Shown here in pieces: positions 1 to 53,206 of a DNA stretch of 64,000 nucleotides; within the stretch, counting starts at the first letter, position 1; the number at the start of each line of letters is the position of its first letter. The stretch lies in the IMG/VR virus record IMGVR_UViG_3300022876_000098, one strand, 5' to 3'. The translations under genes were made by a program, and so were the position numbers. This stretch comes from an uncultured virus (IMG/VR IMGVR_UViG_3300022876_000098) (taxonomy: Duplodnaviria > Heunggongvirae > Uroviricota > Caudoviricetes). The notes under the pieces were generated by a model. It was not told the origin of the DNA, ran no database searches, and worked only from the letters and a program-made list of their open reading frames with translations.

Positions 1-1156
1 GGCCCACCCCGGCCAGGGCGAGCAGGGCCGCCACGCAGAAGATCGAGGCGTACCCTAGGTGCACGGCTACTGCGCCCATTACTGGCCCGGCGATAGCCAG
101 GGCCATATCGAAGAACACCGCATAGGCTCCCAGCCCCGCACCGCGGCTGTTGCTGGGGACCTGCTTGATGGCCTCCACGCCCAGCGCCGGGTACACCAGC
201 GACAGCCCGAAACCGGTAAGCCCTGCGCCGACCAATGCCCAGGCCGGCGAAGGCGCCAGCCACAGCAAGCTCAGGCCGAGCACTTCAGTGGCCATGCAGG
301 CGACCGCCACGCTGTAACCACCAAAGCGGTTGACCGCGTTGACGAACAGCAGACGCGAAAGGATGAAGCACACACCAAACGCACTCAGGCACCAGGCTGC
401 GCCTAGCCAACCGCGCTCCAGGTAGTACAAAGTGACGAAGGTGGTCAGCGTGCCGTAGCCGATCGAGGCCAGGGTCAGCCCAAGACCACACGGCGCGACC
501 CGGACAAACGCCGACCAGAACGGCAGGCGCTCGCCACGCACCACCACCACGTCGGCACGCTTGCGCAACACCAGCAGGGCAAGGGTTGCCAGCACCAGCA
601 AAGCAGGGCCCAGCACGCTGAAGTCCAGCTCATCCACGGCCACTACGCCCAGTGGTGCGCCAATGGCGATGGCGCCGTAGGAGGCGATGCCGTTCCATGA
701 GATCACCCTGGCGGTGTGTTCGGGGCCGACCTGGCTGATGCCCCAGCTCAAGGTGGCCACACCGATCAGCCCCTGGGCGATGCCGAGCAGCAACCGGCCC
801 CCAAGCAACAACGCCAGGCTCAGCAGCGGCAGCGTCAGGGTCCAGGCCGATAACAGGGTCAATACCCCGCAGCCGGCAATCCCCATCAGGCCGAAGCGGA
901 TGGCTTGCTTGCCCCCGAGGTTATCTGCAACGCGCCCGGCAAACGGGCGGCTCAGTAGGGTGGCCAGATACTGCAAGCCGATGGTCACCCCTGCGATCAC
1001 CGCACCAAAGCCCAGCTGGTCGTGCACGTAGCTGGGTAACACCGCAATCGGCAGGCCGATGCAGAGGAAGGCAATGAAGGTGTAGAAAACGATCGACAGG
1101 ATCTGCAGGGTGATTTGCAGCGTATGGCTGGCGGGGGCAGGTTGTTGCGCGGTCAT
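1..1156 (-). CDS. MFS transporter (YhhS-like), 3' end outside the window
   Basis: Read manually from ATG at 1156: MTAQQPAPASHTLQITLQILSIVFYTFIAFLCIGLPIAVLPSYVHDQLG...SRPFAGRVADNLGGK. Multiple TM helices and an MFS motif-A-like segment. Confidence 0.85.
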   Translation of the reverse strand, partial: MTAQQPAPASHTLQITLQILSIVFYTFIAFLCIGLPIAVLPSYVHDQLGFGAVIAGVTIGLQYLATLLSRPFAGRVADNLGGKQAIRFGLMGIAGCGVLTLLSAWTLTLPLLSLALLLGGRLLLGIAQGLIGVATLSWGISQVGPEHTARVISWNGIASYGAIAIGAPLGVVAVDELDFSVLGPALLVLATLALLVLRKRADVVVVRGERLPFWSAFVRVAPCGLGLTLASIGYGTLTTFVTLYYLERGWLGAAWCLSAFGVCFILSRLLFVNAVNRFGGYSVAVACMATEVLGLSLLWLAPSPAWALVGAGLTGFGLSLVYPALGVEAIKQVPSNSRGAGLGAYAVFFDMALAIAGPVMGAVAVHLGYASIFCVAALLALAGVG

Positions 1157-1269
1157 GGGCTCTTTCGCGGGCGGGCGGTTGGGCGTGGTCCCATGATGGC
1201 TGTTACATGAAGGAAATGAAAGCAGGCTAACGAATTATTCGTCGGGTTGTGTCAGCTGTGGGGCTGGCG

Positions 1270-1312
1270 GTGGGATCTTCGCGGGCAAGCCCGCGAAGAG
1301 GCGGGCCCAGCC
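1270..1312. repeat. Degenerate Pseudomonas putida-type REP palindrome
   Basis: Intergenic CTTCGCGGGCAAGCCCGCGAAG inverted repeat resembling the P. putida REP core. Confidence 0.55.
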
Positions 1313-1341
1313 ATACACAATGGCCAGGCCTTACCCATCAA

Positions 1342-2928
1342 TCAGACCAGTACGCCTTGGCTGCGCAGGTAATCGTCGTAGGTGCCGCTGAAGTCCACCA
1401 CGCCATCGGGCGACAGCTCGATGATGCGCGTGGCCAACGACGACACGAACTCACGGTCGTGGCTGACGAACAACAAGGTGCCCGGATAGTTTTCCAGCGC
1501 CAGGTTCAGCGCCTCGATCGATTCCATGTCCAGGTGGTTGGTTGGCTCGTCCATCACCAGCACGTTCGGCTTTTGCAGGATCAGCTTGCCGAACAGCATC
1601 CGGCCTTGCTCACCACCGGAAATCACCTTCACCGACTTGAGGATCTCGTCGTTGGAGAACAGCATGCGCCCCAGGGTGCCGCGAATCACTTGCTCGCCGG
1701 AGGTCCACTGGCCCATCCAGTCAAACAGGCTCAGGTCGTCTTCAAAGTCGTGAGCGTGGTCCTGGGCGTAGTAGCCCACTTCCGCGCTGTCAGTCCATTT
1801 CACCGAACCTGCGTCCGGGGTCATTTCGCCGACCAGCGTGCGCAGCAGGGTAGTCTTGCCAATACCGTTGGGGCCGATGATTGCAACGCGCTCACCCGCT
1901 TCGACGGTAATGTCGAAGTTTTTGAACAGCACCTTGTCGTCGAAGGCCTTTGCCATCTTCTCCACCACCACCGCCTGACGGTGCAGTTTCTTGGTCTGCT
2001 CGAAGCGAATGAACGGGCTGACGCGGCTGGAAGGTTTCACTTCGGCCAGCTGGATCTTGTCGATCTGCTTGGCACGCGAAGTCGCCTGCTTGGCCTTGGA
2101 GGCGTTGGCCGAGAAGCGGCTGACGAACGTCTGCAGTTCGGCGATCTGCGCCTTTTTCTTGGCGTTGTCCGACAGCAACTGCTCACGCGATTGGGTGGCC
2201 GCAGTCATGTACTCATCATAGTTGCCCGGGAACAGGCGCAGCTCGCCGTAGTCCAGGTCGGCCATGTGGGTGCAGACGCTGTTGAGGAAGTGGCGGTCGT
2301 GGGAAATGATGATCATGGTGCTGTTACGCGCCGTGAGGATCGTTTCCAGCCAGCGGATGGTGTTGATATCCAGGTGGTTGGTCGGTTCGTCGAGCAGCAG
2401 CACGTCCGGGTCCGAGAACAATGCCTGGGCCAGCAGCACACGCAGCTTCCAGCCTGGCGCCACTTCGCTCATCGGGCCGAAGTGTTGCTCCAGGGGGATA
2501 CCCAGGCCGAGCAGCAGTTCACCGGCGCGGGATTCGGCGGTGTAGCCGTCCATTTCGGCGAATTCGGTTTCCAGCTCGGCGACGGCCATGCCGTCTTCCT
2601 CGGTCATTTCCGGCAACGAGTAGATACGGTCGCGCTCGGCCTTGACCTTCCACAGCTGGCCGTGGCCCATGATCACGGTGTCGATCACGGTGAATTCTTC
2701 ATAGGCGAACTGGTCCTGGCGCAGCTTGCCCAGGCGGGTGTTCGGCTCGAGCATGACCTGGCCACCGGACGGCTCCAGGTCGCCGCCGAGGATCTTCATG
2801 AAGGTCGACTTGCCGCAACCGTTAGCGCCGATCAGGCCGTAACGGTTGCCGTTGTTGAATTTTACGGAAACGTTTTCGAACAGCGGCTTGGAGCCGAACT
2901 GCATGGTGATGTTAGCGGTAGAAATCAA
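1342..2928 (-). CDS. ybiT: ABC-F family ATPase (YbiT-like)
   Basis: Two ABC domains ([19 protein letters not shown] and [22 protein letters not shown]), no TM segments, TTG start. Confidence 0.9.
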
Positions 2929-2960
2929 GTGCTTGTCCTGCGGGGGTTCCAGAGGTGTAT

Positions 2961-4175
2961 TTAGGCCCTGTCGTCAGTCTTGGGCCAATTTTGGGCCAAT
3001 TCGACTCGGGGCGGCAGCTTCTCCAGCTCCCTCCAGTCCGAGGAGGAGCTGATCCATTTCGCGTAGGTAGAGAGCAACATCTCGACGCTGTGGCCAAGCT
3101 GGCTCGCGATGAACGCGGGGTTCATCCCAGACATCAGGCACATGGTTGCGTAGGTGTGGCGGGTGTCGTACTGACGGCGTTCACGGATGTTCAGCGCCTT
3201 CAGCGCCGATTTGAAGTGGCGGATTGTAACACTTGGCTCGTTAATCCACAGCCCACCTTTGCTAGGTTGGAACACGAAGGGGCTCGTAGGGTGGGCCGAC
3301 TTGGACGCCATGCGACGAAGAGTAGCCATTCGCTGGGCCTGGTTGATGGCGTTCAGTGCGCGCTCGTTTAACAGGACCACCCGATGATGCTTGGTTTTCG
3401 TGCGTTCCTGGGGCGCACGGTTGACGATGATCCGGCGAACCGTCGCGGAGCGCTGATCAAGGTCGATGTCCTCCCACTTCAGGCCCATTGCTTCGCCAGG
3501 GCGGACTCCAGTAAAGAAGCAAAACTCAAAGAACGCTGCGTAGATCTGCGAGTATTTCTGAAGCGTCGCATACAGGTGGGAGATTATCGCCTCTGCTTCC
3601 GCCCTGGTGTAAGGGTCTACGACCTTCTTGACGGCCCTTGGCTTATCGAGCGAGTTGGTGGGGTTCTTGGCGATCAAACCATCGAGGACCGCTGTCTTGA
3701 AAACGCTGGACAGCTTGATGATCGCATTCCGCTTGACGCCAACTGACGTCCACTGGATCTGGGAAATGACCCCGCGAAGCATGGTCGGCGTGATCATGTC
3801 TATCCGGCGTAGGCCGAGGTACGGCATCCAGTAGATGTTGAACACGCTCTTGTAGTTGTTGCGGGTGCCTTCGACGATGTGGCGACTATCCAGCCACATC
3901 TGGGTGTAGGCGCCCAGGCTCGGAATGGACTCCGCCGTCCGGCGGGCCACCTCCGAGCCCGGGAATAGCTCGGCATACTTCTCGTCGTCCAGCAGGTCGT
4001 GGCGGATCAGGTTTACTACTTGATCACGTACACGGCTGGCTGCGCGGATGCCCTGCGCCGTCGGGGGATGGGCGAGGGTTTCCCCGCGACGCTCACCGTT
4101 CCAAGTGAAACGGATTCGGAGCGAGTCTCCTCGGATTTCAATTCCAGGGGGCAGACCCACAGGCTTTCGAGCCAT
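2961..4175 (-). CDS. int: Tyrosine recombinase (phage integrase) with N-terminal arm-binding domain
   Basis: FTGVRPGE (catalytic R), [20 protein letters not shown] (catalytic Y). Confidence 0.95.
2980..3001. repeat. Tandem 11-bp direct repeat TTGGGCCAATT x2, putative integrase arm-type sites
   Basis: Exact tandem repeat inside the 3' end of int, next to the inferred att junction. Confidence 0.55.
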
Positions 4176-4390
4176 TCCTCATATCTCCATCTGCTGTACA
4201 TGATGTTGCGGCCGTTCTTATTCCAGACGCCTTCAGGGATTTTCCCGCGCTGGCGCCGGGTCTGAAGCGCTCGCAGCGTAATTCCCAGCAGTTCGGCCAT
4301 CTTTTCCTCCGTTACCTTGTCCATTTCCTGGGCAACGGCCTCTTCCAGCCCGGCGCGTTCATCGCCTGGCTTCTTCCTTTTTGAATGCAT
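4016..4390 (-). CDS. Excisionase-like DNA-binding protein overlapping the int 5' end
   Basis: MAELLGITLRALQTRRQRGKIP winged-helix pattern, directly upstream of int, 160-nt overlap. Confidence 0.65.
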   Translation of the reverse strand: MHSKRKKPGDERAGLEEAVAQEMDKVTEEKMAELLGITLRALQTRRQRGKIPEGVWNKNGRNIMYSRWRYEEWLESLWVCPLELKSEETRSESVSLGTVSVAGKPSPIPRRRRASAQPAVYVIK

Positions 4391-4977: not shown

Positions 4978-5898
4978 TTATTTGGTCAGTTCGTGTCCGA
5001 ACGGCACGCGGAAGCCGGAAGCGTTGCGGTGCCCACCGCCGCCGTACTGCTTGGCGATCTCCGACACATCCATGCCCTCGTCGGTGCTGCGCAGGCTGAA
5101 TACGCGGCCATCAGGGGTGTCCCAGTAGCAGGCGGCGAAAGGTTCGCCCTGGGCCATGAGGTGACCCGCATCGCTGGTGAGCGTGTACGGCAGGCTGGCC
5201 ACCGGCACATCGTGACCTCCGATGACCAGGCGGCGCTTGGTCACGGCCACCAGTTCGGCAACGTCCTTCTGGTGCTTTCGCTCAATCGCGGCGCCGTCCG
5301 AGCGGAGGGTCTGCACATCAGTCGCCATGAGCGTGTCCCAGACTTCGAAGTCATAGGGGTAGCTGAAGAGATTGGCCTGAATCTCGCGGGTGCCGTCCAG
5401 CTGGAACAGCCACAGGTCTCGGTCCTCGATGTGGCGCAGCAGCATGGGAGGTTCTTGCGCGGGGAAGAAGTGGTCCCAGGCAAGCATGGCGCCGCTGCGG
5501 TTCATGTCGAAGCAGCAGGCGATAGCGGGGGAGTTCTGCGAACTCATCAAGATGTGCGCGCTTTCCCACCCCAGCGCGACCGTGCCGTCGGCGTGCCGGC
5601 CATCCAGCCGAACGCCTGCGTGGAAAGGCGGGAATTTGCCCAGATCCTCCGCTGCCGACTTGTGGTGGTCCAGGATGATTATGCTGTTGGCTTTCCAGCT
5701 CATCCTGGCCATGACTTCGTACTTGTAGCTGAAGTCCACGATGATGACGTTTTTGCCCTCAACGTCAGGCGGCTCCTGGCCGTACACGCCGGCGACGAAC
5801 TCGACCTGGTCGCCCATGGCCTTGCGGACAACCCAGGCGGCGCCGAAGCCGTCAGCACAGTTGCCATGGTAGATGCACATCGTTTTGCGTTCAGACAT
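4978..5898 (-). CDS. DHH/DHHA1 family phosphoesterase
   Basis: YHGNCADG, VDFS, ILDHH, DRDLW and GGGGHRNASGF motifs. Confidence 0.9.
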   Translation of the reverse strand: MSERKTMCIYHGNCADGFGAAWVVRKAMGDQVEFVAGVYGQEPPDVEGKNVIIVDFSYKYEVMARMSWKANSIIILDHHKSAAEDLGKFPPFHAGVRLDGRHADGTVALGWESAHILMSSQNSPAIACCFDMNRSGAMLAWDHFFPAQEPPMLLRHIEDRDLWLFQLDGTREIQANLFSYPYDFEVWDTLMATDVQTLRSDGAAIERKHQKDVAELVAVTKRRLVIGGHDVPVASLPYTLTSDAGHLMAQGEPFAACYWDTPDGRVFSLRSTDEGMDVSEIAKQYGGGGHRNASGFRVPFGHELTK

Positions 5899-5970
5899 AG
5901 AGGTTCCTCGCCCGCGCACAGCGGCGGGCACGCATGTTTAAATAGTGCCCCCAAAACAAGGAGCATTGAA

Positions 5971-6156
5971 ATGGCAAAGGAAGCCAGGAAGCCGTTTGGC
6001 TACGTAGCGGTCACGCTCATACCTACGGGCATCGGGTTCGTTATGGGCGGGCTGCTGTCAGACCAGCCGGCATTCATCTACAGCGGCCTGGGCATGGCTA
6101 TACCTGGGGTGTTGCTAGCCGCGACGCACTTCTGGACGACCCGTCGACGGGCTTGA
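5971..6156 (+). CDS. Small two-TM membrane protein (moron)
   Basis: AGGAG SD, MAKEARKPFGYVAVTLIP..., opposite strand to its neighbours. Confidence 0.65.
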   Translation: MAKEARKPFGYVAVTLIPTGIGFVMGGLLSDQPAFIYSGLGMAIPGVLLAATHFWTTRRRA

Positions 6157-6172
6157 GTTGTAGGGGGAGGGG

Positions 6173-6653
6173 TTAGGCTGCTGGGCGTTTCATGAAGGTG
6201 ATCCAGTGCGTCTTTTCGCGCTTGCCTGACTTGTGGCCAAACAGGGGGCTTCTCATCGCTGAGGGCCAGCTCGCTGACCAGCACCTGGGTTTCATTCCAC
6301 TTGAAGATCAGGATTCCCTCGGGCTCCAGCACGCGGAAGCACTCGGCGAAGCCCTGGCGGATATCCTCCCGCCAGTCGCTGGTCAGCAGTCCGTACTTGG
6401 CGCGCATCCAGCTATCGACGCCGGCCCGGGTTAGGTGCGGCGGATCGAACACGACCAGGCGGAAGGTTGAGGCCTCGAAGGGCAGGCTGCGGAAGTCCAT
6501 CAGCACATCGGGCTCAACCTTCAGCACCCGGCCGTCGCATAGCAGGTGCTCCTCGTCGCGGATGTCACCGAAGAGGGCGCGTTGGTCTTGCTTGTCGAAC
6601 CACATCATGCGGCTGGCGCTGCAAGGGTCGAGCACTTTGGCTGCGGCGCTCAC
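6173..6653 (-). pseudogene. SAM-dependent (DPPH-motif) phage methyltransferase, frameshifted at a G5 run (6244-6248)
   Basis: VLDPCSASRMMWFDK and VVFDPPH motifs. The C-terminus LFGHKSGKREKTHWITFMK lies in a shifted frame; span is 481 nt (3n+1). May be a sequencing error. Confidence 0.7.
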
Positions 6654-7015
6654 GGCATCAGCTCCTTCGGCACCTGGACGGTATCGCCGAGCTTGGTGAT
6701 GACGAGGGTGCGGCAGAAGGCGATCAATGCGGTTGGCCCGTAGAGCCAGATGCCGGCACCTGCAGGGCCGGCGCTGTACCGGCAACTGTCATCCTCCAGA
6801 TGCGAGTTGTGATGGGCGCTGCCCAGGTGCTTATCGAACAGGGGCCCGCCTTGGGCCCAGTTCCAGCTCGGACGCCAGGCGCTGGTGTCATCCGGCAGCT
6901 TTCGCACCCATCCTTGGTGATCGATGAAGACCGGTACGGCCTCGGCCTTCGCCACGGCCCAGTCCAGCGGCGCGCCGACCAGGTTGGATACCCTCACTTC
7001 GATCAGGTCGGTCAT
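6650..7015 (-). CDS. NinX/DUF2591-like phage protein
   Basis: LVGAPLDWAVAKAE, WRPSWNWAQGGPL and GPTALIAFCR patterns. Confidence 0.75.
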   Translation of the reverse strand: MTDLIEVRVSNLVGAPLDWAVAKAEAVPVFIDHQGWVRKLPDDTSAWRPSWNWAQGGPLFDKHLGSAHHNSHLEDDSCRYSAGPAGAGIWLYGPTALIAFCRTLVITKLGDTVQVPKELMP

Positions 7016-7524
7016 TGCTGCACCGCCTGCCAGAAGGGACCCTTGTTGGTCACCAAGCCCTTTCGCTTCAGACGCTGGCATGCCTTGCTGATCTCTTCCC
7101 GAGATTCGCGGATGGCGCCGCGCATGGCGTGGGCCGTTGATCCCTCGATGCCGATCAAGTGCCCCAGAACTCGCTCATCTGTCCCGCCGGCGAGCATGCC
7201 CTGGCCATACTTGGCAGCCACTGTTGCAACCGCCAAGCGCAGCGGGCTCTTCCGGGCGCCAGGTTCGTCTGCATGCGACACCTCACTTTGCTTGAAGCCG
7301 ACATACGGAACATGAGCTGTGGCCCGAGCGAGGTGGTGCAAGCAGCAGATGTCCATCCTGAGCTTTGCGATGATGAGCATCGTCTGCCGGTCATCCCGCA
7401 TCGGCAGCCAAACCTCCCGGCCTGTCTCCGGGTCGTCGTAGTAGAAGGCGTCACTGCCGCGCCGGTACTCCAGCTCGAAGCCCATGGCCTTGGCCGACAG
7501 CTTAATGATGTCGTCTTCTGTCAC
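7012..7524 (-). CDS. Phage hypothetical protein, possible C-terminal wHTH
   Basis: Coupled ORF (4-nt overlaps on both sides). Confidence 0.65.
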   Translation of the reverse strand: MTEDDIIKLSAKAMGFELEYRRGSDAFYYDDPETGREVWLPMRDDRQTMLIIAKLRMDICCLHHLARATAHVPYVGFKQSEVSHADEPGARKSPLRLAVATVAAKYGQGMLAGGTDERVLGHLIGIEGSTAHAMRGAIRESREEISKACQRLKRKGLVTNKGPFWQAVQQ

Positions 7525-9891: not shown

Positions 9892-10692
9892 GTGAATTTC
9901 ACCGATTTGTTAAATATGCCAGATGGAGGTGAGATCTCGAAAAGGACGCTCTTTGATTTGATACAGTTCTCCAAGGTACCCGGATCCGCCCACTGGTCCG
10001 GAGAGTCTTCAATAATTAACAATACTCCTCAGCAAGGTATTAATTGGGTAGGTGAAATTCCTGCGCTTGGCGGTGTCTTGGTCAAAGTTCGTTCTGGTAG
10101 TTATAAGCATGACGGATGGGTCGGTGCAGGTAGGGAGCTATATCGGTACTCGTTGAAAGCGCGCAAGGGCGTTATATCTTTAGCAGAAAAAGCGAATCGT
10201 GCTTTGCTCAATCAGCCAGATTTTGGGTATCCGGTACTTTTGTATAGTGAACAGAAAACTAATTGGATTTTTGAAGGGGTTTTCGGAGTAAATGAATGTA
10301 CGGGCGAGTATGTGGTACTTGGTCGTCGCGCCCCGGCGTCGGATTTTATCGATAAACCTACCCAAAGCTTTCTGGAAGGCGGAAAAAAGTTTGTTACCCA
10401 CTTGGTGTCTGAACGAAATACCCAGGTGGTGAGGCTGCTGAAGGCAAATGGCTCGTGCTTGTGTGAAATATGCCAAGAAGATTTTCAGGAAAAATACGGC
10501 ATCCAGTACATCGAGGCTCACCATAAGATTCCAGTGTCAAACCTAGAGTCAGAGGCGGCGGTGACGATGGAAGATCTCGCCCTGTTGTGCTCGAATTGCC
10601 ATTCAGCGGTGCATTCTTATATGCGTGGCGGTCTGCAAAATTATGATGAGATAAAGGCAGTGATCATTGGGGCACTGATGTCAAAGACTTGA
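9892..10692 (+). CDS. HNH endonuclease with putative SRA/PUA-like N-terminal domain
   Basis: CEIC...IEAHHKIP...LLCSNCHSAVH (McrA-type HNH). N-terminal YKHDGW..YRY..NRALL..PVLLY..FEGVF pattern; AT-rich. Confidence 0.8.
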   Translation: MNFTDLLNMPDGGEISKRTLFDLIQFSKVPGSAHWSGESSIINNTPQQGINWVGEIPALGGVLVKVRSGSYKHDGWVGAGRELYRYSLKARKGVISLAEKANRALLNQPDFGYPVLLYSEQKTNWIFEGVFGVNECTGEYVVLGRRAPASDFIDKPTQSFLEGGKKFVTHLVSERNTQVVRLLKANGSCLCEICQEDFQEKYGIQYIEAHHKIPVSNLESEAAVTMEDLALLCSNCHSAVHSYMRGGLQNYDEIKAVIIGALMSKT

Positions 10693-11614
10693 TCAGTCTA
10701 TCGCCTATCCATCGCACAATTGCAACTGGTTTACTGTTGCCCAACGCTTTGTATCTGTGAGCATCTGGGCAGTCTAGCGCGCTATTACCTTTCCAAGGTA
10801 TTGCGGTGTAATTGTCCGGAAATCCTTGGCATCGCTCCCATTCCACTGGTGTGGTTCTGCGCACGCCTCCGGACTCCAGTACATATGCCTCTCGGTCATC
10901 GAGAGCGCCTCCCCCTCGAGCCGTGAGAGTAGGATGAAGTGCGAACTTCTCCGGCCGTCCCGGCGGGCTATCCCGGCGAGGGCCTTCTCGCTCAAAAAGT
11001 ACTTCGAGGGGATCGAATCCTGCTCGAGCACTTCCGACAACGAACACACGGCGGCGTCGTTGGGCCAGGCCGAAATATTGGGCATCCAGAACCCGCCAGG
11101 CGACTGTTCGCGTGGGTCCATACACACAACCAGCGTTCTTCCATTTGCCCCCTGGCGGTTGGAGTTCTTCGGATTCGCCCACCAGGGCGCCGAGGAAGCA
11201 GCCAAACGCGTTGCCTTTGTCGGAGAGGACGCCGGGGACGTTTTCCCAGAGGCAGGCAGCCTCGGGCTCGCCGCGCTTTGTTCGAACATGGTCAATTGCA
11301 TCGAGGAGCTCCACGTATTTGATGGTAAGGGCGCCGCGGGGATCGGCCAGGCCCTCGCGCATGCCCGCCACACTGAAGGCCTGGCAGGGCGTGCCGCCGA
11401 CTAGGACATCGGGCGCAGGGATCTTGCCAGACAGCACCATGGCTGCGAGGCGAGTCATGTCGCCGTGGTTTGGCGTGTTCGGGTAGTGGTAGTTGAGCAC
11501 AGCACAAGGGAAGGGCTCGATCTCTGCGTACCATTCTGCGCGCCAGCCCAGCGGGTGCCAAGCCACGGTCGCAGCTTCAATGCCGCTGCAGACGCTTCCG
11601 TAGGTGATGGGCAT
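10664..11614 (-). CDS. dcm: Phage DNA (cytosine-5) methyltransferase
   Basis: Motif I SVCSGIEA, IV GGTPCQAFS, VI WENVPG, VIII QRRRRVF, IX RRTTPVEWERCQGFP, X ALGNS. Confidence 0.9.
   Translation of the reverse strand: MPITYGSVCSGIEAATVAWHPLGWRAEWYAEIEPFPCAVLNYHYPNTPNHGDMTRLAAMVLSGKIPAPDVLVGGTPCQAFSVAGMREGLADPRGALTIKYVELLDAIDHVRTKRGEPEAACLWENVPGVLSDKGNAFGCFLGALVGESEELQPPGGKWKNAGCVYGPTRTVAWRVLDAQYFGLAQRRRRVFVVGSARAGFDPLEVLFEREGPRRDSPPGRPEKFALHPTLTARGGGALDDREAYVLESGGVRRTTPVEWERCQGFPDNYTAIPWKGNSALDCPDAHRYKALGNSKPVAIVRWIGDRLIKSLTSVPQ
10774..11301 (-). CDS. Overprinted ORF inside dcm (M.EcoHK31I beta-like)
   Basis: Alternative frame starting MQLTMFEQ, with FWMPNISAWPNDAAVCSLSEVLE...KYFLSEKALAGIARR. 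Confidence 0.5.
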   Translation of the reverse strand: MQLTMFEQSAASPRLPASGKTSPASSPTKATRLAASSAPWWANPKNSNRQGANGRTLVVCMDPREQSPGGFWMPNISAWPNDAAVCSLSEVLEQDSIPSKYFLSEKALAGIARRDGRRSSHFILLSRLEGEALSMTERHMYWSPEACAEPHQWNGSDAKDFRTITPQYLGKVIAR

Positions 11615-11627
11615 TGGTGATCCTCCG

Positions 11628-12018
11628 CTACGCAACCTTTGGCGTCATCTCTGGCTGGTAGTCGACCCAGCCAATCCTCGGCGCCTTCGTTTTCTTGTTG
11701 ATGAGCGGATTGCCCTCGGCGTCAGTCAGAGTGCACCTGGCCCTGACCCGGAGGTCTCGGCAGTTACCGCCCTTGCGTGCGAGCGAGACGAACTGCTCGG
11801 CATACTGCGGCGCATCAAAGGTAGGGCTGAGCTGGCGCACCTTCTTGCCCTGCATGATCTTCACCGCCTGCTTGTGGACTGCCTCGTCCCATTCAGCGAC
11901 TGTCAGGTCGATGGGGGGGGCAACCAACCTTTCCGCTGGGCTTGGTGGTCTTCGTGGTTTTCCTGGCCTCGGCCAGCGCTACATCACGGGTCATTCCGAA
12001 CACTGCGAATGTGCTCAT
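11628..12018 (-). pseudogene. Phage hypothetical protein with +1 frameshift at a G8 run (11913-11920)
   Basis: MSTFAVFGMTRDVALAEARK...GKVGC joins PPIDLTVAEWDE only if one base of the run is removed; span is 391 nt. Confidence 0.65.
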
Positions 12019-13883: not shown

Positions 13884-14096
13884 TTCCCTCGCGAATGCTG
13901 AAGCCTTTCCAATATTGCTCTGGCGCTTGCTATTAAAAGGGCCGCAGGGCTGCCGTCCGGCTTCTTGTCCATGAAGTGGACACTGCGTGGCCAATGCGCA
14001 TGGGTGTTCCTCCGTGGCCGGCTGGCGGCATGGTGGCAATTTGGTTTGGGGTGGGGTATTACGGGTGACCGGCATGGGGCCGGCCCGGAGGTGATT

Positions 14097-14663
14097 TTGA
14101 CAGAGGCTGAAAAGGACCAACTTGACGCTGCCAAGCGGGTATACGAGCAATGCCTGGAAATCAGAAACTTTGAGATCGGACAGCTGACAAATCGCAACAA
14201 CTTCCTGATGATTTTTCAGGGGGTTTTGTTTGCCGGATTGGTGCAGTCAGCAGGTTCGTTTCCAATTGTGACCTTCATGGCTTGCCTCACGGGTGTGCTT
14301 GTATCTTGGTATCAGACGAAGATCGCAGCTGGTGCAAAGTATTGGCAGGAGCACTGGGAAGCCGAGGTAAGAGAATCCGAGATCAGATTGATCGAGATTC
14401 TTGCTAAAATCCCTGACCGGACACCTGTCAGGCTTTTTTCTCAAGAGCAAGCTGATATTCGATCAGCGGTTCAAAAACGCCTGGAAAAAGGGAATACGGG
14501 GTTTGTCATGAGGACACTTATCCTGGAGAAATTTTCGGTAAGTAAGGTTCCGATTCAGCTGGGCATAGCTCTCATGCTCATCTGGGCAACGCTACTAATC
14601 TGTACCGTTAATTTCGGGTTGTGTTTGTCAGTTCCAGATTTCATAACCGGATTCAAGCGCTGA
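14097..14663 (+). CDS. Membrane protein resembling the RipA/8xMP oligomeric-pore family
   Basis: GGAGG SD then TTG. YEQCLEIRNFEI..RNNFLMIFQGVLFAG, TM, GAKYWQEHWE, C-terminal TM. Family recalled from memory. Confidence 0.55.
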   Translation: MTEAEKDQLDAAKRVYEQCLEIRNFEIGQLTNRNNFLMIFQGVLFAGLVQSAGSFPIVTFMACLTGVLVSWYQTKIAAGAKYWQEHWEAEVRESEIRLIEILAKIPDRTPVRLFSQEQADIRSAVQKRLEKGNTGFVMRTLILEKFSVSKVPIQLGIALMLIWATLLICTVNFGLCLSVPDFITGFKR

Positions 14664-20700: not shown

Positions 20701-20750
20701 GTGAGGCTTGAGGGCCTCCCGAGGGGCTGTGTAGCGCCTCGATGAAATGA

Positions 20751-20793
20751 ACGATAAGCCAATGCCTATTTTTTGTAAATAGGTAATGCCTAA
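20751..20793 (-). promoter_or_regulatory. pL promoter with OL operators
   Basis: -35 TTTACA, 17 bp, -10 TATCGT. Operators TAAGCCAATGCCTA and TAGGTAATGCCTA match those at OR. Confidence 0.7.
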
Positions 20794-20864
20794 CCTTTTC
20801 ATAAGCGCCTAATCCGCTATCCGGGCTTGCATCATTCGATGGCTCGGGTAAGCTCTGCTTAACA

Positions 20865-20880
20865 CTGGATGGATGTACAG
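20865..20880. promoter_or_regulatory. LexA (SOS) box
   Basis: CTGGATGGATGTACAG = CTG-N10-CAG directly before the SD of the downstream gene. Confidence 0.7.
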
Positions 20881-20895
20881 TTAAAGGAGGAAGAT

Positions 20896-21222
20896 ATGGC
20901 CAAGCAGAAGAAGTCGAGCCCGCAAGCGCGCCAAGAGATGACCGCCCTTGAGCGGCTGGGTCTGCGGGTCTCGTCGATGATCAATCACCCGATCGCCCAA
21001 GCTCAGCGCTGGGTAACGATCCATCGCCTAGACACGGACGGAGACATGGAGTGGGAGGAGGTGATGGGGCTGCTGGCTGAAACGTCGGAGCTGGACCTGA
21101 CGTTCAATGATGACGAAAGCGTGACGGTGAGGTGGGAGGCTCAGGACGCCGGAGATCGAGACGACCTGGTCGTGGAGAGGGATTGGGAGAAGGAAAGGGT
21201 GGAGGAGGAGGTGCCTTTCTGA
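20896..21222 (+). CDS. DUF1654-like protein
   Basis: ERLGLRVSSMINHPIAQAQRWVTIHRLDTDGD. Confidence 0.75.
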   Translation: MAKQKKSSPQARQEMTALERLGLRVSSMINHPIAQAQRWVTIHRLDTDGDMEWEEVMGLLAETSELDLTFNDDESVTVRWEAQDAGDRDDLVVERDWEKERVEEEVPF

Positions 21223-21229
21223 CCAGCAC

Positions 21230-21257
21230 GAAAAGCCCGCGCAATGCGGGCTCTTGC
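21230..21257. terminator. Bidirectional intrinsic terminator
   Basis: AAAAGCCCGC-GCAAT-GCGGGCTCTT between convergent genes. Confidence 0.75.
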
Positions 21258-21259
21258 AG

Positions 21260-22288
21260 CTATTCCGTTGGCATACCCAATTTTAATGACTTTGCATGTG
21301 CTGCTATGAACGGTGGGGGTAAGGCATTCCCGATCATCAAAGCAATAGCTTCCTTTCCATGAGCGGGGTTGAAGTAATAGTCATGGGGGAACCCTTGAAG
21401 AACTGCCGCTTCCCGTAGCGTTATAGTTCGATCAAGCTCCGGGTGTAAAAAGCGCCCTTTTGAAGGATTATGACAGCCACTGGTAATTGTTGGGGAAACT
21501 GAATCCCAGTTCATTCTCCCGTAAACATCTCTAAAACCGTCACTTTTTTTGTGGCAGTCTAGTTGATATTCAGCGGCTAAGTCTCTTCTACTTCCACCAT
21601 TCTTCGGGATCAACGAAATGATACGTTGAACGGCCGGGGTCCTACGTTCAGGAATTAAATGTACAGGATCTTCAAAAGACGCTGAGTCAGGAATGGAGGA
21701 AAATGCTTCACGCACAGTCATTCTAGTTTCTGATTTCATTGCTACAGCGGGCACGTGAACTCGTGAGGCAAGCATAATTAGTCGCTTGCGTCGCTGTGGT
21801 ACTCCAAAATTGGCAGCGTCTAATACTTGGACTGTACAGTTGTAGCCAAGAGCTTCAAGGTCACGTATTGCTAGCTCAAATCTATTATCTTTCGTAAGCG
21901 AGGGAACGTTCTCGAGCATAATGCATTTTGGCATCATGATTTTTGCAAAACGAATAAAATCGCTTATGAGGTCGTTCCGCGCATCAGCTACAGAGTTGGC
22001 CTTGTTTTTAGTTCGCAGTCTAGAAAAACCTTGGCAAGGCGGGCATCCGGCGAGCAAATCTAGCTGTCCTGGATTTATCCCAGCATCAAGCATGATCTGG
22101 CTTGGATCCAGTTCGCGGATGTCTCTGTCATAAAGCGCAACATGCGGATGGTTGGCTCTATATGTTTCAATAGCTTTCGGCGCAATCTCAACTGCGGCGG
22201 TAACGCGGAAACCCGCTTGCTCTAGGCCAAGGCTTAAACCTCCGCAACCACTGAACAGGTCTACGGCGATGAATTCGCGGGTTTTCAA
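21260..22288 (-). CDS. DNA (cytosine-5) methyltransferase, bacterial/RM type
   Basis: DLFSGCGG, GCPPCQGFS, MLENVP, PQRRKR, LREAAVLQGFP, IGNALPP; AT-rich. Confidence 0.92.
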   Translation of the reverse strand: MKTREFIAVDLFSGCGGLSLGLEQAGFRVTAAVEIAPKAIETYRANHPHVALYDRDIRELDPSQIMLDAGINPGQLDLLAGCPPCQGFSRLRTKNKANSVADARNDLISDFIRFAKIMMPKCIMLENVPSLTKDNRFELAIRDLEALGYNCTVQVLDAANFGVPQRRKRLIMLASRVHVPAVAMKSETRMTVREAFSSIPDSASFEDPVHLIPERRTPAVQRIISLIPKNGGSRRDLAAEYQLDCHKKSDGFRDVYGRMNWDSVSPTITSGCHNPSKGRFLHPELDRTITLREAAVLQGFPHDYYFNPAHGKEAIALMIGNALPPPFIAAHAKSLKLGMPTE

Positions 22289-22325
22289 TGATTTTGATCC
22301 TGGTGCCAGTCAAGCGCTTCGCGCC

Positions 22326-24092
22326 CTATTTTACATGATTCAGCCATAATTTCAATTGTTGGCGAATCGTGTTCAAATCATCATTATCAATCGGGATCTT
22401 GGCGGTCGATACTTTCTCTAAAACGCTCATTTCTGCTTGAGGGAGTTCAATTGCACCTTGAGTCAAAAAGATCCTTAATTGGTCTTTAGCATCTTGCGCA
22501 TCTTTGCAATCGGCGCCGAGTTGGGGGTCATGAGCGTCAAGAAGTATCTGTTCGGGACAGCGTTTAGGCAGATAGGCTAGCCGCTTTCTAGCCCAGGCCA
22601 GGTATTCTAAATGGGAATTTATCTTGGCTGCGTTGTGTTGCTCCGCTCCGTTCCCTCCTTGAAGAAGGAAATGCGGTGCGCAGCCAAATTCTGCTTTAAG
22701 CAACAGTTCGAGGCTGGAGTATTCAGCTGGTGGTATTTTTAGTGGGTCGGTGAAATCATTAACTTTCTTTTTATCTCCGTCCAAGTAAACGAATATATCA
22801 TCGCCAGATGTCATTGCTGAGGGTATATGGTACTTTAAGATTGATTCAGCCCCGCCAGGGGCAATTTTTATTTCAATTGCCTGTTGGTCTCCTGCATCTA
22901 AACCCTTAATCGAGTGGGTTATTATTTGTTCGGCGAGCGGGTCTTCAACAAGAATTCTTTTTGTTTTAGGCTGTTGCCTCCCTAGGCGATGAAGCGCAGC
23001 ATATGGAGAGCAATGAGGCAGAGCTCGAGTTTGCTGTTGGCCGTTGTCTTCAAGGACCTTTATTGCAGAGGCTGGAAGGCCATCTAGGAAGTCGCTTGAG
23101 TGTGTTGATATAATTATCTGGTGGTGCTTAATCTTGATTTGCTCAAGTAGAAATCTCAGTAGGGCTCGCTGGGCTCCGGGGTGTAGAGATGTCTCTGGTT
23201 CATCAAGCAAGATAAGCGAATACTTTTCAGCAGCAAGGAGTTGCACGACAGCACTTACAGCAGCGATCTCGCCGCTTCCTGCGAAAGCTTCTGAGTATTC
23301 AAATCCGCGCTTAAATACTACGCTCATGTCTTGGCCCCTGTTGCCCGGGTAGAGCGAGTGGCGTACAAGTTGCGCTGACGTGTATTCCCTTCCGAGGATA
23401 TTCGATACGTGAAACAGTTCTTCGTCTGTCAGTGGCCGGTTCTCAAAAAGCTTTTGCCTAGGCCCGTGCTTATAGCTCTGTTTGTTTTCAGCGATAATAC
23501 GTTTCAGGCGTTGGGCCTCAAGCTTCATTGAGCTCCTATTCTGATCTCCTCCTTCATCGGTATAAAAATACCGATCAAAAGACCCGAAAGTCATTTTGAA
23601 GTTTATGTAAACAACCTTTCGCCTTACTGGGTTCCATCTATCCTTAGATTTTCCCTCGAATTTTTGTGCTGGGATGGGTGGCATGCCATCTGCTTCACTC
23701 CTGCGGTAGGGCTCCCAGTAGTCCTCTTTGCGGCCAAGCCTTGCCTTACGTGTTTCTACAATACCTTTGTAAGACTCGTTCCAATGGCCATAGACATATC
23801 GTTGTGGATCCTTTTTGGATCCCTCAATAGGGTCCAAGTCAGTGGCGAACCAAAATTTGCTGGTTGTATAGCCGAAGGGCATGCCCCATAAAGCGTGCAA
23901 TATCGAGCTTTTGCCAATTCCGTTGGCGCCTACAAGTGCCGTTAACGGAAATTCAAAATCTATTTGAGTTCCTGGTTCAATTCCTTTGAACTTCGGAAAT
24001 CGAGCATGAGTGATGTAGCTTTTGAGAGGCTTGCCGGGTTTAAATTTTTCTAGCGTAGTGACCAGTTCGGCAATGGCTTCATTGTCATTCAT
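22326..24092 (-). CDS. ABC-type ATPase fused to TOPRIM nuclease (OLD-like)
   Basis: Walker A GANGIGKS, signature AGSGE, Walker B LLDEPETSLHP, STHS; TOPRIM ILVED and YLDGD; AT-rich. Confidence 0.85.
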   Translation of the reverse strand: MNDNEAIAELVTTLEKFKPGKPLKSYITHARFPKFKGIEPGTQIDFEFPLTALVGANGIGKSSILHALWGMPFGYTTSKFWFATDLDPIEGSKKDPQRYVYGHWNESYKGIVETRKARLGRKEDYWEPYRRSEADGMPPIPAQKFEGKSKDRWNPVRRKVVYINFKMTFGSFDRYFYTDEGGDQNRSSMKLEAQRLKRIIAENKQSYKHGPRQKLFENRPLTDEELFHVSNILGREYTSAQLVRHSLYPGNRGQDMSVVFKRGFEYSEAFAGSGEIAAVSAVVQLLAAEKYSLILLDEPETSLHPGAQRALLRFLLEQIKIKHHQIIISTHSSDFLDGLPASAIKVLEDNGQQQTRALPHCSPYAALHRLGRQQPKTKRILVEDPLAEQIITHSIKGLDAGDQQAIEIKIAPGGAESILKYHIPSAMTSGDDIFVYLDGDKKKVNDFTDPLKIPPAEYSSLELLLKAEFGCAPHFLLQGGNGAEQHNAAKINSHLEYLAWARKRLAYLPKRCPEQILLDAHDPQLGADCKDAQDAKDQLRIFLTQGAIELPQAEMSVLEKVSTAKIPIDNDDLNTIRQQLKLWLNHVK

Positions 24093-24215
24093 ACTCTGAT
24101 CCGTGTCATAGATTTAGTTTTGGTGTAGAGCTTAATGGGTATTATTAAAGGCTACAGGTTTCTTTAAGCACAAGTCGGGCAAGGGTCGGGGGGTGGTTAG
24201 TCTCACTATTTATTT

Positions 24216-25058
24216 TCAAACTAAATGTGCATTCCACACCAACAGCACACGAGCCTGAATGTAGGTCATGTCCCGGCGGATCAGCCGATCCTTGTGCCTG
24301 GTGTTGTCCGAAATCATCTCGAAATGTTCCTCATCCGCCACCTGCAGGCGCTTGATGTAGATGTGGTCATCCCAGTAGAAGAGGTAGATCCCGTCGCCCA
24401 CGAATTCGCGGACGTTGATATTTACGATCAGCGGGTCACGGTGCTTGATGGTGGGCTCCATCGACTGGCCCCAACCGGTGACCACCTTCAGGTGGTAGTG
24501 CTCCTCGAACTCGACGCCGATTTCCCGCAGGTGACTGGGGCTGACGCGAATGTCCTTTAGCATCTCCGGGTAATCGTGCGGGATCTGGCCGCCACCCATT
24601 GCTGCGCGAATATCGTAGTGGGCGATCCGGACCTCGTCGCCGACCAGGCCAGGCCGGGAGAAGTCCGCGGTAATCACATTTCCCTCATCGGTCGCTTCGG
24701 CGGCTGCAATCAACTGCGCGCGCGCCGAATCCGACAAGTTCTTGCCTTGGTTCGCGAGCATGGCGCGAACCATGTCGGCAGCTGAGGTTGGCGCCGGCTC
24801 TGCGACAGGTTCCGAAGTGACGTCCTGGATGCTCTCGTAGGAAAAGCCAGGGCGAAGCCCCCAGTGTTCAGGACCCACTACGTCAGAAAAGTATGCGATC
24901 ACGTCCATCAGCTTGGACTTGTCGATCCGGCCGTTTTTCACCCAGCCCTGCACCGACGGAGGCTTCACCTGGAAGTCGTCTGCGAGCTGTTTCTTAGATA
25001 CGCCCTTGGCGATCCGCGCAGCATCAATGGCTGCACCTAATTCTGGTCCGGTAAGCAT
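24216..25058 (-). CDS. cI: CI-like repressor (HTH + S24 autopeptidase)
   Basis: N-terminal HTH; AAMGGG cleavage-site region, GQSMEP, YIKRLQ. Confidence 0.92.
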   Translation of the reverse strand: MLTGPELGAAIDAARIAKGVSKKQLADDFQVKPPSVQGWVKNGRIDKSKLMDVIAYFSDVVGPEHWGLRPGFSYESIQDVTSEPVAEPAPTSAADMVRAMLANQGKNLSDSARAQLIAAAEATDEGNVITADFSRPGLVGDEVRIAHYDIRAAMGGGQIPHDYPEMLKDIRVSPSHLREIGVEFEEHYHLKVVTGWGQSMEPTIKHRDPLIVNINVREFVGDGIYLFYWDDHIYIKRLQVADEEHFEMISDNTRHKDRLIRRDMTYIQARVLLVWNAHLV

Positions 25059-25154: not shown

Positions 25155-25403
25155 ATGAAATCAGCAGAAGCAGCCAAAGAAGCATCCCGCGTGCTGGGCA
25201 GCCAGGCGGAATTGGCGCGCCGGCTGAATGTTGCGGCACCCACCGTCAACCAATGGTGTTCAGGAGAGCGCACGGTCCCAGCCAAGCGCGCACTGCAGAT
25301 TGAGGCGCTTACGAATGGCGCCGTGAATCGTGCCGATCTGTGTCCGTCGTTCCCGTGGAACCAAGTCGACAGTAATCCGACCCGCGCGCTTTCCGCCGCC
25401 TAA
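25155..25403 (+). CDS. cro: Cro/YdaS-like HTH regulator
   Basis: GSQAELARRLNVAAPTVNQW..ADLCP; divergent from cI. Confidence 0.85.
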   Translation: MKSAEAAKEASRVLGSQAELARRLNVAAPTVNQWCSGERTVPAKRALQIEALTNGAVNRADLCPSFPWNQVDSNPTRALSAA

Positions 25404-53150: not shown

Positions 53151-53206
53151 CCACAGCTGAACGTACAAGCCGCCTCTGGGCGGTTTTTTATTGCTTGGAG
53201 AAAAAT

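Follow-up and report, generated by a model that had tools for sequence, protein, structure and literature searches.

A conserved phage-borne pair of an OLD-superfamily ATPase–Toprim nuclease and a C5 cytosine methyltransferase, predicted to be a restriction–modification-like module, behind the cI gene of a Pseudomonas prophage

We analysed two adjacent genes in a 64,000-nt stretch of DNA from an uncultured virus (IMG/VR record IMGVR_UViG_3300022876_000098, Caudoviricetes), hereafter called the window. The first encodes a predicted ATPase–Toprim nuclease of the OLD superfamily, the second a C5 cytosine DNA methyltransferase (hereafter, methylase), and both lie behind the cI-type repressor gene of a prophage. 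The pair proves to be a genuine two-gene module, conserved and carried by phages, that is predicted to be either a restriction–modification (R-M)-like defence system or a methylase-coupled class of OLD systems. A sequence-only reading of the window had proposed a linked two-gene anti-phage system: a guard system, or an unusual form of R-M in which ATP gates a Toprim nuclease. Linkage of the genes and the slot they occupy support this proposal, and the sequence comparisons reported here point to its R-M-like alternative.

The features of the pair are:

22326–24092, minus strand: gene of the predicted OLD-superfamily ATPase–Toprim nuclease, a single open reading frame (ORF) of 588 aa with an ATG start
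22968–24020, minus strand: ABC-type ATPase head, residues ~25–375 (AAA_15, 1.4e-21; AAA_21, 6.3e-19)
22329–22967, minus strand: Toprim domain and C-terminal helical region, residues ~376–588, with invariant E383, G414, D438 and D440
22289–22325, minus strand: spacer of 37 nt from the nuclease stop to the methylase TTG start, from ORF coordinates
21260–22288, minus strand: gene of the C5 cytosine DNA methyltransferase, 342 aa, TTG start, catalytic PCQ cysteine C85

Results

Linkage of the nuclease and methylase genes

Linkage of nuclease homologues to methylases had been set beforehand as a test that could refute the two-gene system. To assess it, we scanned metagenome and viral sequences with a sub-alignment specific to the family, as a full-length alignment picked generic ABC motifs and mostly irrelevant loci. 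The scans yielded 40 loci with an ATPase homologue, which collapsed into 28 clusters at 98% identity; one cluster was too short to judge, leaving 27 informative ones. A homologue of the window methylase (38–71% identity) accompanied the ATPase in 24 of the 27. The two genes were adjacent on the same strand in 22 of the linked clusters, with the methylase downstream in 16 and upstream in six. In one of the other two the genes were divergent and 580–888 nt apart, one variant having a second methylase and another gene inserted; in the other they were separated by 5.2 kb containing an ORC/Cdc6-like kinase gene and one more gene. Tightly coupled loci had gaps of 0–37 nt or overlaps, and the gaps in the six methylase-upstream clusters were 0–22 nt. 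Convergent pairs were found in further viral loci (L092, L094, L095, L096, L099, and L100).

The linkage persisted down to ~32% ATPase identity, and ATPases of 32–48% identity that were found from the methylase side were also linked. ATPase and methylase identities co-diverged across 22 pairs (Mantel r 0.69, with none of 2000 permutations as high), a correlation to which shared ancestry contributes. Among the 17 methylase-linked viral ATPases, two (L096 and L098) had a frameshift or an interruption while the methylase beside them was intact, and the ATPase of one methylase-less cluster, L028, was broken. On these comparisons, the methylase and nuclease appear to be inherited as one mobile unit, in four relative orientations and also in non-phage contexts.

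A large ORC/Cdc6-like protein with a kinase-like N-terminus was encoded, together with a small neighbour gene, beside or between the OLD and methylase genes of two metagenome loci (L024:423–5346 and L028:5155–9680). In L024, the ORC/Cdc6-like gene splits the pair in the manner of an "embedded" defence gene.

The ATPase–Toprim protein

Every ATPase and Toprim motif that the sequence-only reading had named was present in the translation and was invariant or nearly so among 76 homologues, down to 30% identity. Invariant positions comprised G55, N57, G58 and K61 of Walker A (G55-x-N57-G58-x-x-K61), G272, G274 and E275 of the ABC signature AGSGE (271–275), D297-E298 of Walker B, and H331 of the H-loop (STHS, 329–332). 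In the Toprim domain, characterised by ILVED (380–384) and DGD (438–440), the invariant residues were E383, G414, D438 and D440. The Toprim Glu, Gly and DxD motifs bind metal A in Burkholderia pseudomallei OLD, as described in PMC6755086. D384, E514 and K536 were invariant as well and are candidate metal-B ligands or catalytic lysine; their spacing differs from that of E404, T506/E508 and K562 in the account of B. pseudomallei OLD.

The AlphaFold2 model of the nuclease had a mean predicted local distance difference test score (pLDDT) of 93 and a predicted TM-score (pTM) of 0.88. A Foldseek search with the whole model placed T. scotoductus OLD first (6p74, 1.1e-16), followed by GajA (6.6e-13), retron PtuA and retron Eco8, and 6P74 was also the best match in profile comparison (7.4e-11). 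Model residues 20–375 matched SMC, Rad50 and PtuA heads at Z 16–17.6 in VIA-align. The C-terminal 217 residues were also modelled alone (pLDDT 94). When the Toprim domain was compared to 48,161 PDB representatives with VIA-align, the best match was the C-terminal region of B. pseudomallei OLD (6nk8_B; Z 8.6, root-mean-square deviation 4.4, 164 aligned residues), and the next were T. scotoductus OLD (6p74, Z 7.4), the hypothetical protein PH0156 (2p62, Z 7.3) and AriB (Z 7.2). Foldseek with the isolated Toprim domain returned nothing at E ≤ 0.001, its best matches being OLD C-terminal regions at 1.3e-3. Based on the motifs and the structural matches taken together, the 588-aa protein is therefore predicted to be an OLD-superfamily ATPase–Toprim nuclease.

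The family is large: 2123 of 8000 scored proteins matched at E ≤ 0.001, and 367 clusters at 50% identity were obtained at E ≤ 1e-30. Of the best 120 homologues (54–100% identical), two have 461 and 547 aa and all others ~585–640 aa. With the ATPase as query, tblastn found no match in 50,697 deposited phage genomes. The plasmid search detected only distant solo relatives of the ATPase (26–33% identity), with no methylase neighbour annotated in a gene table that is incomplete; the best E. coli plasmid matches had 28.6% identity and covered residues 301–442 only.

The methylase and its partners

The methylase matched PF00145 at 1.3e-62 over 320 of the 324 profile positions (cutoff 22 bits), TIGR00675 at 1.4e-50 (above cutoff) and the PADLOC model MTase_II at 1.4e-84. 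FSGCGG, PPCQ, ENV, QRR, REAA and GNALPP motifs were readable in its translation, and C85, E126-N127-V128, Q165/R167 and G320-N321 were invariant in 22 homologues. With near-complete profile coverage and the full motif set, the description of the gene as a complete C5 methyltransferase holds. The target-recognition region, which carries a PTIT(S/G)GC motif, showed 64–81% identity over 81 residues among 21 sequences.

We scanned viral sequences with this target-recognition region and obtained 52 loci, which were not de-duplicated. Partner classes were assigned from Pfam scans of exemplars, BLASTP to exemplars and the family hidden Markov model. Some large ATPase or nuclease-type partner was found beside the methylase in 47 of the loci. 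Adjoining genes encoded a GHKL/MORC-like ATPase of ~640–700 aa (24 loci), an OLD-type ATPase–Toprim protein (17 loci), a UvrD-PD-(D/E)XK fusion (two loci), a Response_reg_2 protein with a HEF_HK/GHKL protein (two loci, L097:5405–10049 and L106:1–4289), a HerA-like ATPase with a 712-aa protein without a Pfam match (one locus, L105:5374–9089), and a 524-aa protein without an assigned family with a double-GHKL protein (one locus). The remaining five loci had no recognised partner, three of them being truncated by the edge of the locus. For 56 methylases, left after removal of near-identical sequences, of sequences truncated at a locus edge and of repeats of one and the same contig, a quick maximum-likelihood tree required six changes of the OLD label, at least three of them on well-supported branches. 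Partners therefore appear to have been swapped repeatedly. Operons of a GHKL/MORC ATPase and a cytosine methylase are described as predicted R-M systems by Iyer et al. 2008 (PMC2292703).

The GHKL/MORC partners occurred in L068, L072–L086, L089, L102, L104, L108–L110 and L113–L114, at about 5350–7400 or 700–4300 in each locus. Those of L089 and L104 carry a C-terminal Hypoth_Ymh domain. In L079, the GHKL–methylase pair follows a P2-type replication gene A.

Genomic context of the pair

The window is a lambdoid Pseudomonas prophage, in which the pair is flanked by the following features:

24216–25058, minus strand: cI-type repressor with helix-turn-helix and S24 autopeptidase, 280 aa (Peptidase_S24, 6.7e-16; PHROG CI-like repressor; RacR-like N-terminus)
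24093–24215, minus strand: AT-rich spacer of 123 nt from the cI stop to the ATPase start, with no terminator-like site and no stable fold
25155–25403, plus strand: Cro/YdaS-like gene, divergent from cI
21231–21255, minus strand: intrinsic-terminator-like hairpin with a U-run (fold, z −3.5)
20869–21222, plus strand: DUF1654 gene, convergent with the pair
2961–4175: integrase
1342–2928: ABC-F-type ATPase gene adjoining the integrase (PHROG-scan annotation)

The Erf, exonuclease and SSB genes are on the minus strand to the left of the pair, and replication, NinB/NinG, terminase, portal, head and tail genes are to the right. The ABC-F-type ATPase gene next to the integrase is likely the host flank of the prophage. 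The closest deposited phages were Pseudomonas phages with 76–78% identity in the cI/cro region only, one of which has a different gene, of 212 aa, in the slot behind cI. GC content was 0.43–0.49 over the pair versus 0.56–0.68 in the flanks, and GC content at third codon positions (GC3) was 0.44 for the nuclease and 0.41 for the methylase versus 0.6–0.85 for adjacent genes. The pair is therefore interpreted as an acquired insert. Strand and composition both agree with the earlier description of two co-oriented, low-GC genes 37 bp apart. Likewise, no restriction endonuclease (REase), helicase or reverse transcriptase (RT) gene adjoins them, the only neighbours being cI and the convergent DUF1654 gene.

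The slot behind cI had been taken to be one expressed in the lysogen. This agrees with the position of cI directly upstream of the pair in the window and with the presence of an S24 repressor directly upstream of the ATPase in five of 12 other viral contigs (L053, L054, L092, L094, and L099). Integrases adjoin the pair in three of the 12 and UvrD-nuclease genes in two. The window cI as query did not detect the repressors of L053 and L054, which suggests that phages differing in their immunity genes have acquired the pair in a similar type of slot. In L053 (8558–8878) and L054 (8731–9075), too, the methylase is directly followed by a DUF1654 gene; it is co-oriented with the pair there and convergent with it in the window. 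This gene is a possible marker of the slot's opposite boundary.

The hairpin at 21231–21255 begins 5 nt past the methylase stop. Its minus-strand form has a folding energy of −23.6 kcal/mol (z −3.5, one of 200 shuffles as stable) and UUUU behind it; the plus-strand form folds at −16.8 (z −2.0) and lacks a U-run. A consensus terminator scan made no call at this hairpin. The minus-strand fold thus agrees with the part of the sequence-only reading in which a terminator closes the unit, and since the plus-strand fold is weaker and has no U-run, the bidirectionality also claimed for it is not established. Within the 123-nt spacer between cI and the ATPase, no terminator was called and the fold was unremarkable (z 0.19, 108 of 200 shuffles equally stable).

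The pair had also been placed between the operators OL and OR. This placement is plausible: an inverted pair of ATTGCCTAA sits between cI and cro, and similar words can be seen by eye near 20750–20815. The word count, however, was at chance level, with two matches of ATKGCCTAW versus 1.08 expected and two reached in 24 of 100 shuffles, so the words remain candidates.

Four soil RNA libraries yielded contigs that cover the pair. One of them (X4 record 4) spans 21185–22705 and thus the methylase/ATPase junction, and the ATPase/cI junction is bridged by X7 record 13 (23541–24471) and an X4 contig (23955–24300). As a contig is not a transcript and the libraries may hold DNA, these bridging contigs give a weak hint compatible with expression of a lysogenic unit. 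Contig word depth was higher for the methylase and cI bins than for the flanking early genes in all four RNA runs; these runs had been picked for holding the stretch and contig depth cannot rank genes, and depth was not used as evidence. By analogy with lambda, the pair is probably transcribed together with cI.

Elsewhere in the window, a second C5 methyltransferase gene was found in the early-left region (10664–11635, minus strand; PF00145, 1.2e-32; PHROG DNA methyltransferase). It overlaps the end of a convergent gene for an HNH-domain protein (9892–10692, plus strand, GC3 0.48), and the two may be another methylase–nuclease moron. The early-left region also contains a gene of the 8xMP octameric membrane protein family (13965–14663; PF24838, 1.3e-21). 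A J-like tail fibre protein of 3067 aa is encoded at 53195–62398.

Discussion

Interpretation of the pair

We regard the pair as a moron within the immunity region of the lambdoid Pseudomonas prophage. We favour its interpretation as an R-M-like defence module whose cutting arm would be an ATP-dependent OLD/Toprim nuclease, and we consider this slightly more probable than improbable. The interpretation was chosen because linkage is independent of gene order, the two proteins co-diverge, the nuclease decays and the methylase does not, intact nucleases are nearly absent without a methylase, and several restriction-type motors occur with the same methylase. In such a module, the C5 methyltransferase would mark a specific site containing a cytosine, both in the chromosome of the lysogen and in the prophage. 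The ABC ATPase head of the OLD-type protein would serve as an ATP-dependent switch or clamp, and the Toprim domain as a two-metal nuclease cutting incoming unmarked DNA, with methylation protecting against the cutting. Co-transcribed with cI, as lambda rexAB is, the pair would shield the lysogen from other phages.

Several observations weigh against this interpretation. Two methylase-less clusters contained an intact ATPase. In L032, where Z1 and Mrr genes flank the locus, the DNA upstream of it extends for only 2.2 kb; in L043/L044, 5.6 kb lie to either side of it, and Vsr, HNH and UvrD genes are close by. Analysis of the nuclease identified no separate DNA-recognition domain, and methylation specificity could be gained neither from PDB relatives of the methylase (DNMT1, cytosine methylase 8yf3, M.HaeIII, and M.HhaI) nor from the source names of 120 homologues. 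In the window the nuclease gene precedes the methylase gene, and no control protein was seen. The closest characterised relatives work without a methylase by their published accounts, HEC-04 alone and IbfA by abortive infection. PARIS AriB is described as cutting tRNA and P2 Old has been reported to be a tRNase; with tRNA cutters among the nearest characterised relatives, the Toprim substrate need not be DNA.

The shared recognition region of the methylases and the nuclease's lack of a visible recognition domain suggest a more specific form of the R-M-like interpretation, resembling a Type III holoenzyme. Here, the methylase would be the sole sequence reader (Mod-like), recruiting or licensing the ATPase–Toprim protein (Res-like) at unmethylated sites. 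The methylase recognition region is strongly conserved (64–81%, 21 sequences) and common to methylases with unrelated partners, and the gaps of 0–22 nt in the six methylase-upstream clusters are in line with such a complex. No fused methylase–nuclease protein, which would argue for it, was found at 1e-20 among longer proteins, which is weak evidence, and PF00145 was found in none of the best 120 near-length nuclease homologues. We regard this form as possible but doubtful. Equally tentatively, the whole methylase family could be a shared Mod-like reading subunit for interchangeable ATP-driven cutters (OLD ABC–Toprim, MORC-like GHKL, UvrD-PD-(D/E)XK and HerA-type), in which case the Toprim nuclease would have no specificity of its own.

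A different role for the methylase is assumed if the pair is an abortive-infection or guard system. The ATPase–Toprim protein would then be infection sensor and effector, and the methylase either its antidote, which holds it inactive on self, or a guarded bait; when a phage protein inhibits the bait, the nuclease would attack host nucleic acid. The closest named relatives (HEC-04, IbfA, PARIS and P2 Old) are described as sensor-effector or abortive systems, some of them cutting tRNA; HEC-04 is reported to be toxic on induction, and ABC ATPases of this clade to sense phage proteins in PARIS. Tight coupling of the genes (gaps of 0–37 nt or overlaps) would also suit a protein complex. Conversely, the methylase family joins at least five unrelated types of restriction-motor or nuclease-like partner, the pattern of R-M systems with swapped cutting arms, and the solo plasmid relatives (26–33% identity) lack an annotated methylase neighbour, which implies that a sensor alone needs none. 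We know of no Ocr-like phage protein with an established inhibitory action on Type II-like C5 methylases, and count this against a guard role too. Overall, we consider an abortive or guard system unlikely.

It is far less probable still that the genes are two independent morons travelling together, namely an orphan phage methylase that guards the phage's DNA against restriction by the host and a HEC-04-like gene that defends by itself. Orphan methylases are frequent in phages, the window itself has the second C5 methylase at 10664–11635, and HEC-04 is described as working as a single gene. Independence is, however, difficult to reconcile with the linkage in 24 of 27 clusters, the four orientations, the non-phage contexts and the co-divergence, or with the large ATPase or nuclease-type partner beside the methylase in 47 of 52 viral loci.

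Implications

OLD-family nucleases are widespread in defence, and their triggers and substrates are still debated. Under the favoured R-M-like interpretation, a methylase-locked OLD clade would provide a simple, testable self/non-self rule and would add Toprim to the short list of restriction nuclease folds. If the shared-reader holoenzyme were true, the pair would represent a sixth, methylase-coupled OLD class and a general modular architecture for ATP-dependent restriction. That one methylase family combines with several unrelated ATPase–nuclease partners points to modularity as a design principle, open to use or to systematic searches. As a compact (2.8 kb) phage-borne unit in the immunity region, the pair may also explain superinfection immunity patterns in soil Pseudomonas.

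Comparison with known systems

A match to an already named system had been set as a further test that could refute the proposal; no named two-gene system was matched, and the best PADLOC model for the nuclease was the single-gene HEC-04 of Payne et al. (preprint, 2024; 1.4e-32, 111 bits), whose profile of 494 positions was matched best over 157–387. HEC-04 was the best PADLOC model for all 76 of the 76 family members examined, with a best score of 1.2e-41. Because the match is weak and partial, the nuclease family is better described as a distant sister of HEC-04/IbfA than as an orthologue. HEC-04 and IbfA resemble the window nuclease in having an ABC ATPase followed by Toprim in one polypeptide; they differ in acting as single genes, whereas the window nuclease family has a conserved C5 methylase partner. 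HEC-04 is reported to protect E. coli against T4 and T5 (PMC12111858), to lose defence in Walker A lysine and Toprim metal-site mutants, and to be toxic on induction (both bioRxiv 10.1101/2024.01.29.577857). IbfA is described as a plasmid (IncI) homologue of HEC-04 that acts by abortive infection (PMC12111858).

Among OLD systems, the class 1 proteins (P2 Old, T. scotoductus OLD 6P74 and Vibrio cholerae OLD) share the two-domain architecture of the window nuclease. Although 6P74 was the best match by both profile and Foldseek, its sequence identity to the window nuclease is 17–20%. By published description, class 1 OLD genes stand alone and have no conserved partner (PMC10568477, PMC12392090), and in this the window family differs from them, having a methylase partner in 24 of the 27 informative clusters. 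The other described classes have a UvrD partner (class 2, Gabija), belong to a retron (class 3), are split (class 4, PARIS) or are archaeal Cran1 systems with a membrane protein (class 5), and eleven more OLD clades are left uncharacterised (PMC10568477, PMC12392090, PMC12796447). In the class descriptions given there, none of classes 1–5 has a methylase partner.

Gabija GajA combines an ABC ATPase with Toprim in phage defence, as the window nuclease does (structural match 6.6e-13). Gabija has the UvrD-like GajB, whereas the window gene downstream of the nuclease encodes a C5 methylase and is followed by the terminator-like hairpin. A UvrD-PD-(D/E)XK gene adjoins the pair in two related loci, L055 and L057. 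Retron systems of class 3 include an RT and a non-coding RNA (ncRNA); in the window, the neighbours are cI and DUF1654, and scans revealed no RT domain, with no ncRNA search having been made. In PARIS, the AriA ATPase and the AriB Toprim protein are encoded by separate genes, whereas in the window the ATPase and Toprim parts are fused in a single 588-aa ORF, of which AriA models match the ATPase part only; the AriB Toprim is structurally similar to the window Toprim domain (Z 7.2).

Two other candidates were considered and rejected. WonAB is described as an ABC ATPase with a PD-(D/E)XK protein and without a methylase (PMC12137116), and for MADS, MAD3 matches the ATPase head only (6.7e-14). Full-text literature searches returned no paper on a pair of OLD/Toprim and C5 methylase; they did not cover the ABC ATPase survey of Krishnan et al. 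2020, so an earlier in-silico mention is possible.

In its position, the pair follows the logic of lambda rexAB, with accessory defence genes located 3' of cI on the same strand and before a terminator. No Rex family was detected in Pfam, NCBIfam, PADLOC and PHROG scans of the two proteins, and the likeness is positional only.

The MORC/paraMORC operons of GHKL and cytosine methylase genes combine, as the window pair does, a C5 methylase with a large ATPase that has nuclease function. Their ATPase is of the GHKL fold and their nuclease is not Toprim, whereas the window protein has an ABC ATPase and Toprim; the available part of the survey by Iyer, Abhiman and Aravind 2008 (PMC2292703) mentions no OLD-type partner.

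Type I and III R-M systems use a superfamily 2 (SF2) helicase ATPase, whereas the window nuclease has an ABC head. To our knowledge, none of the catalogued REase folds (PD-(D/E)XK, HNH, GIY-YIG, PLD, and half-pipe) is Toprim. In their organisation, classical R-M systems (Type II with a C5 methylase and Type III Mod/Res) resemble this family: both are mobile units of methylase and nuclease in variable order, with nuclease decay beside an intact methylase.

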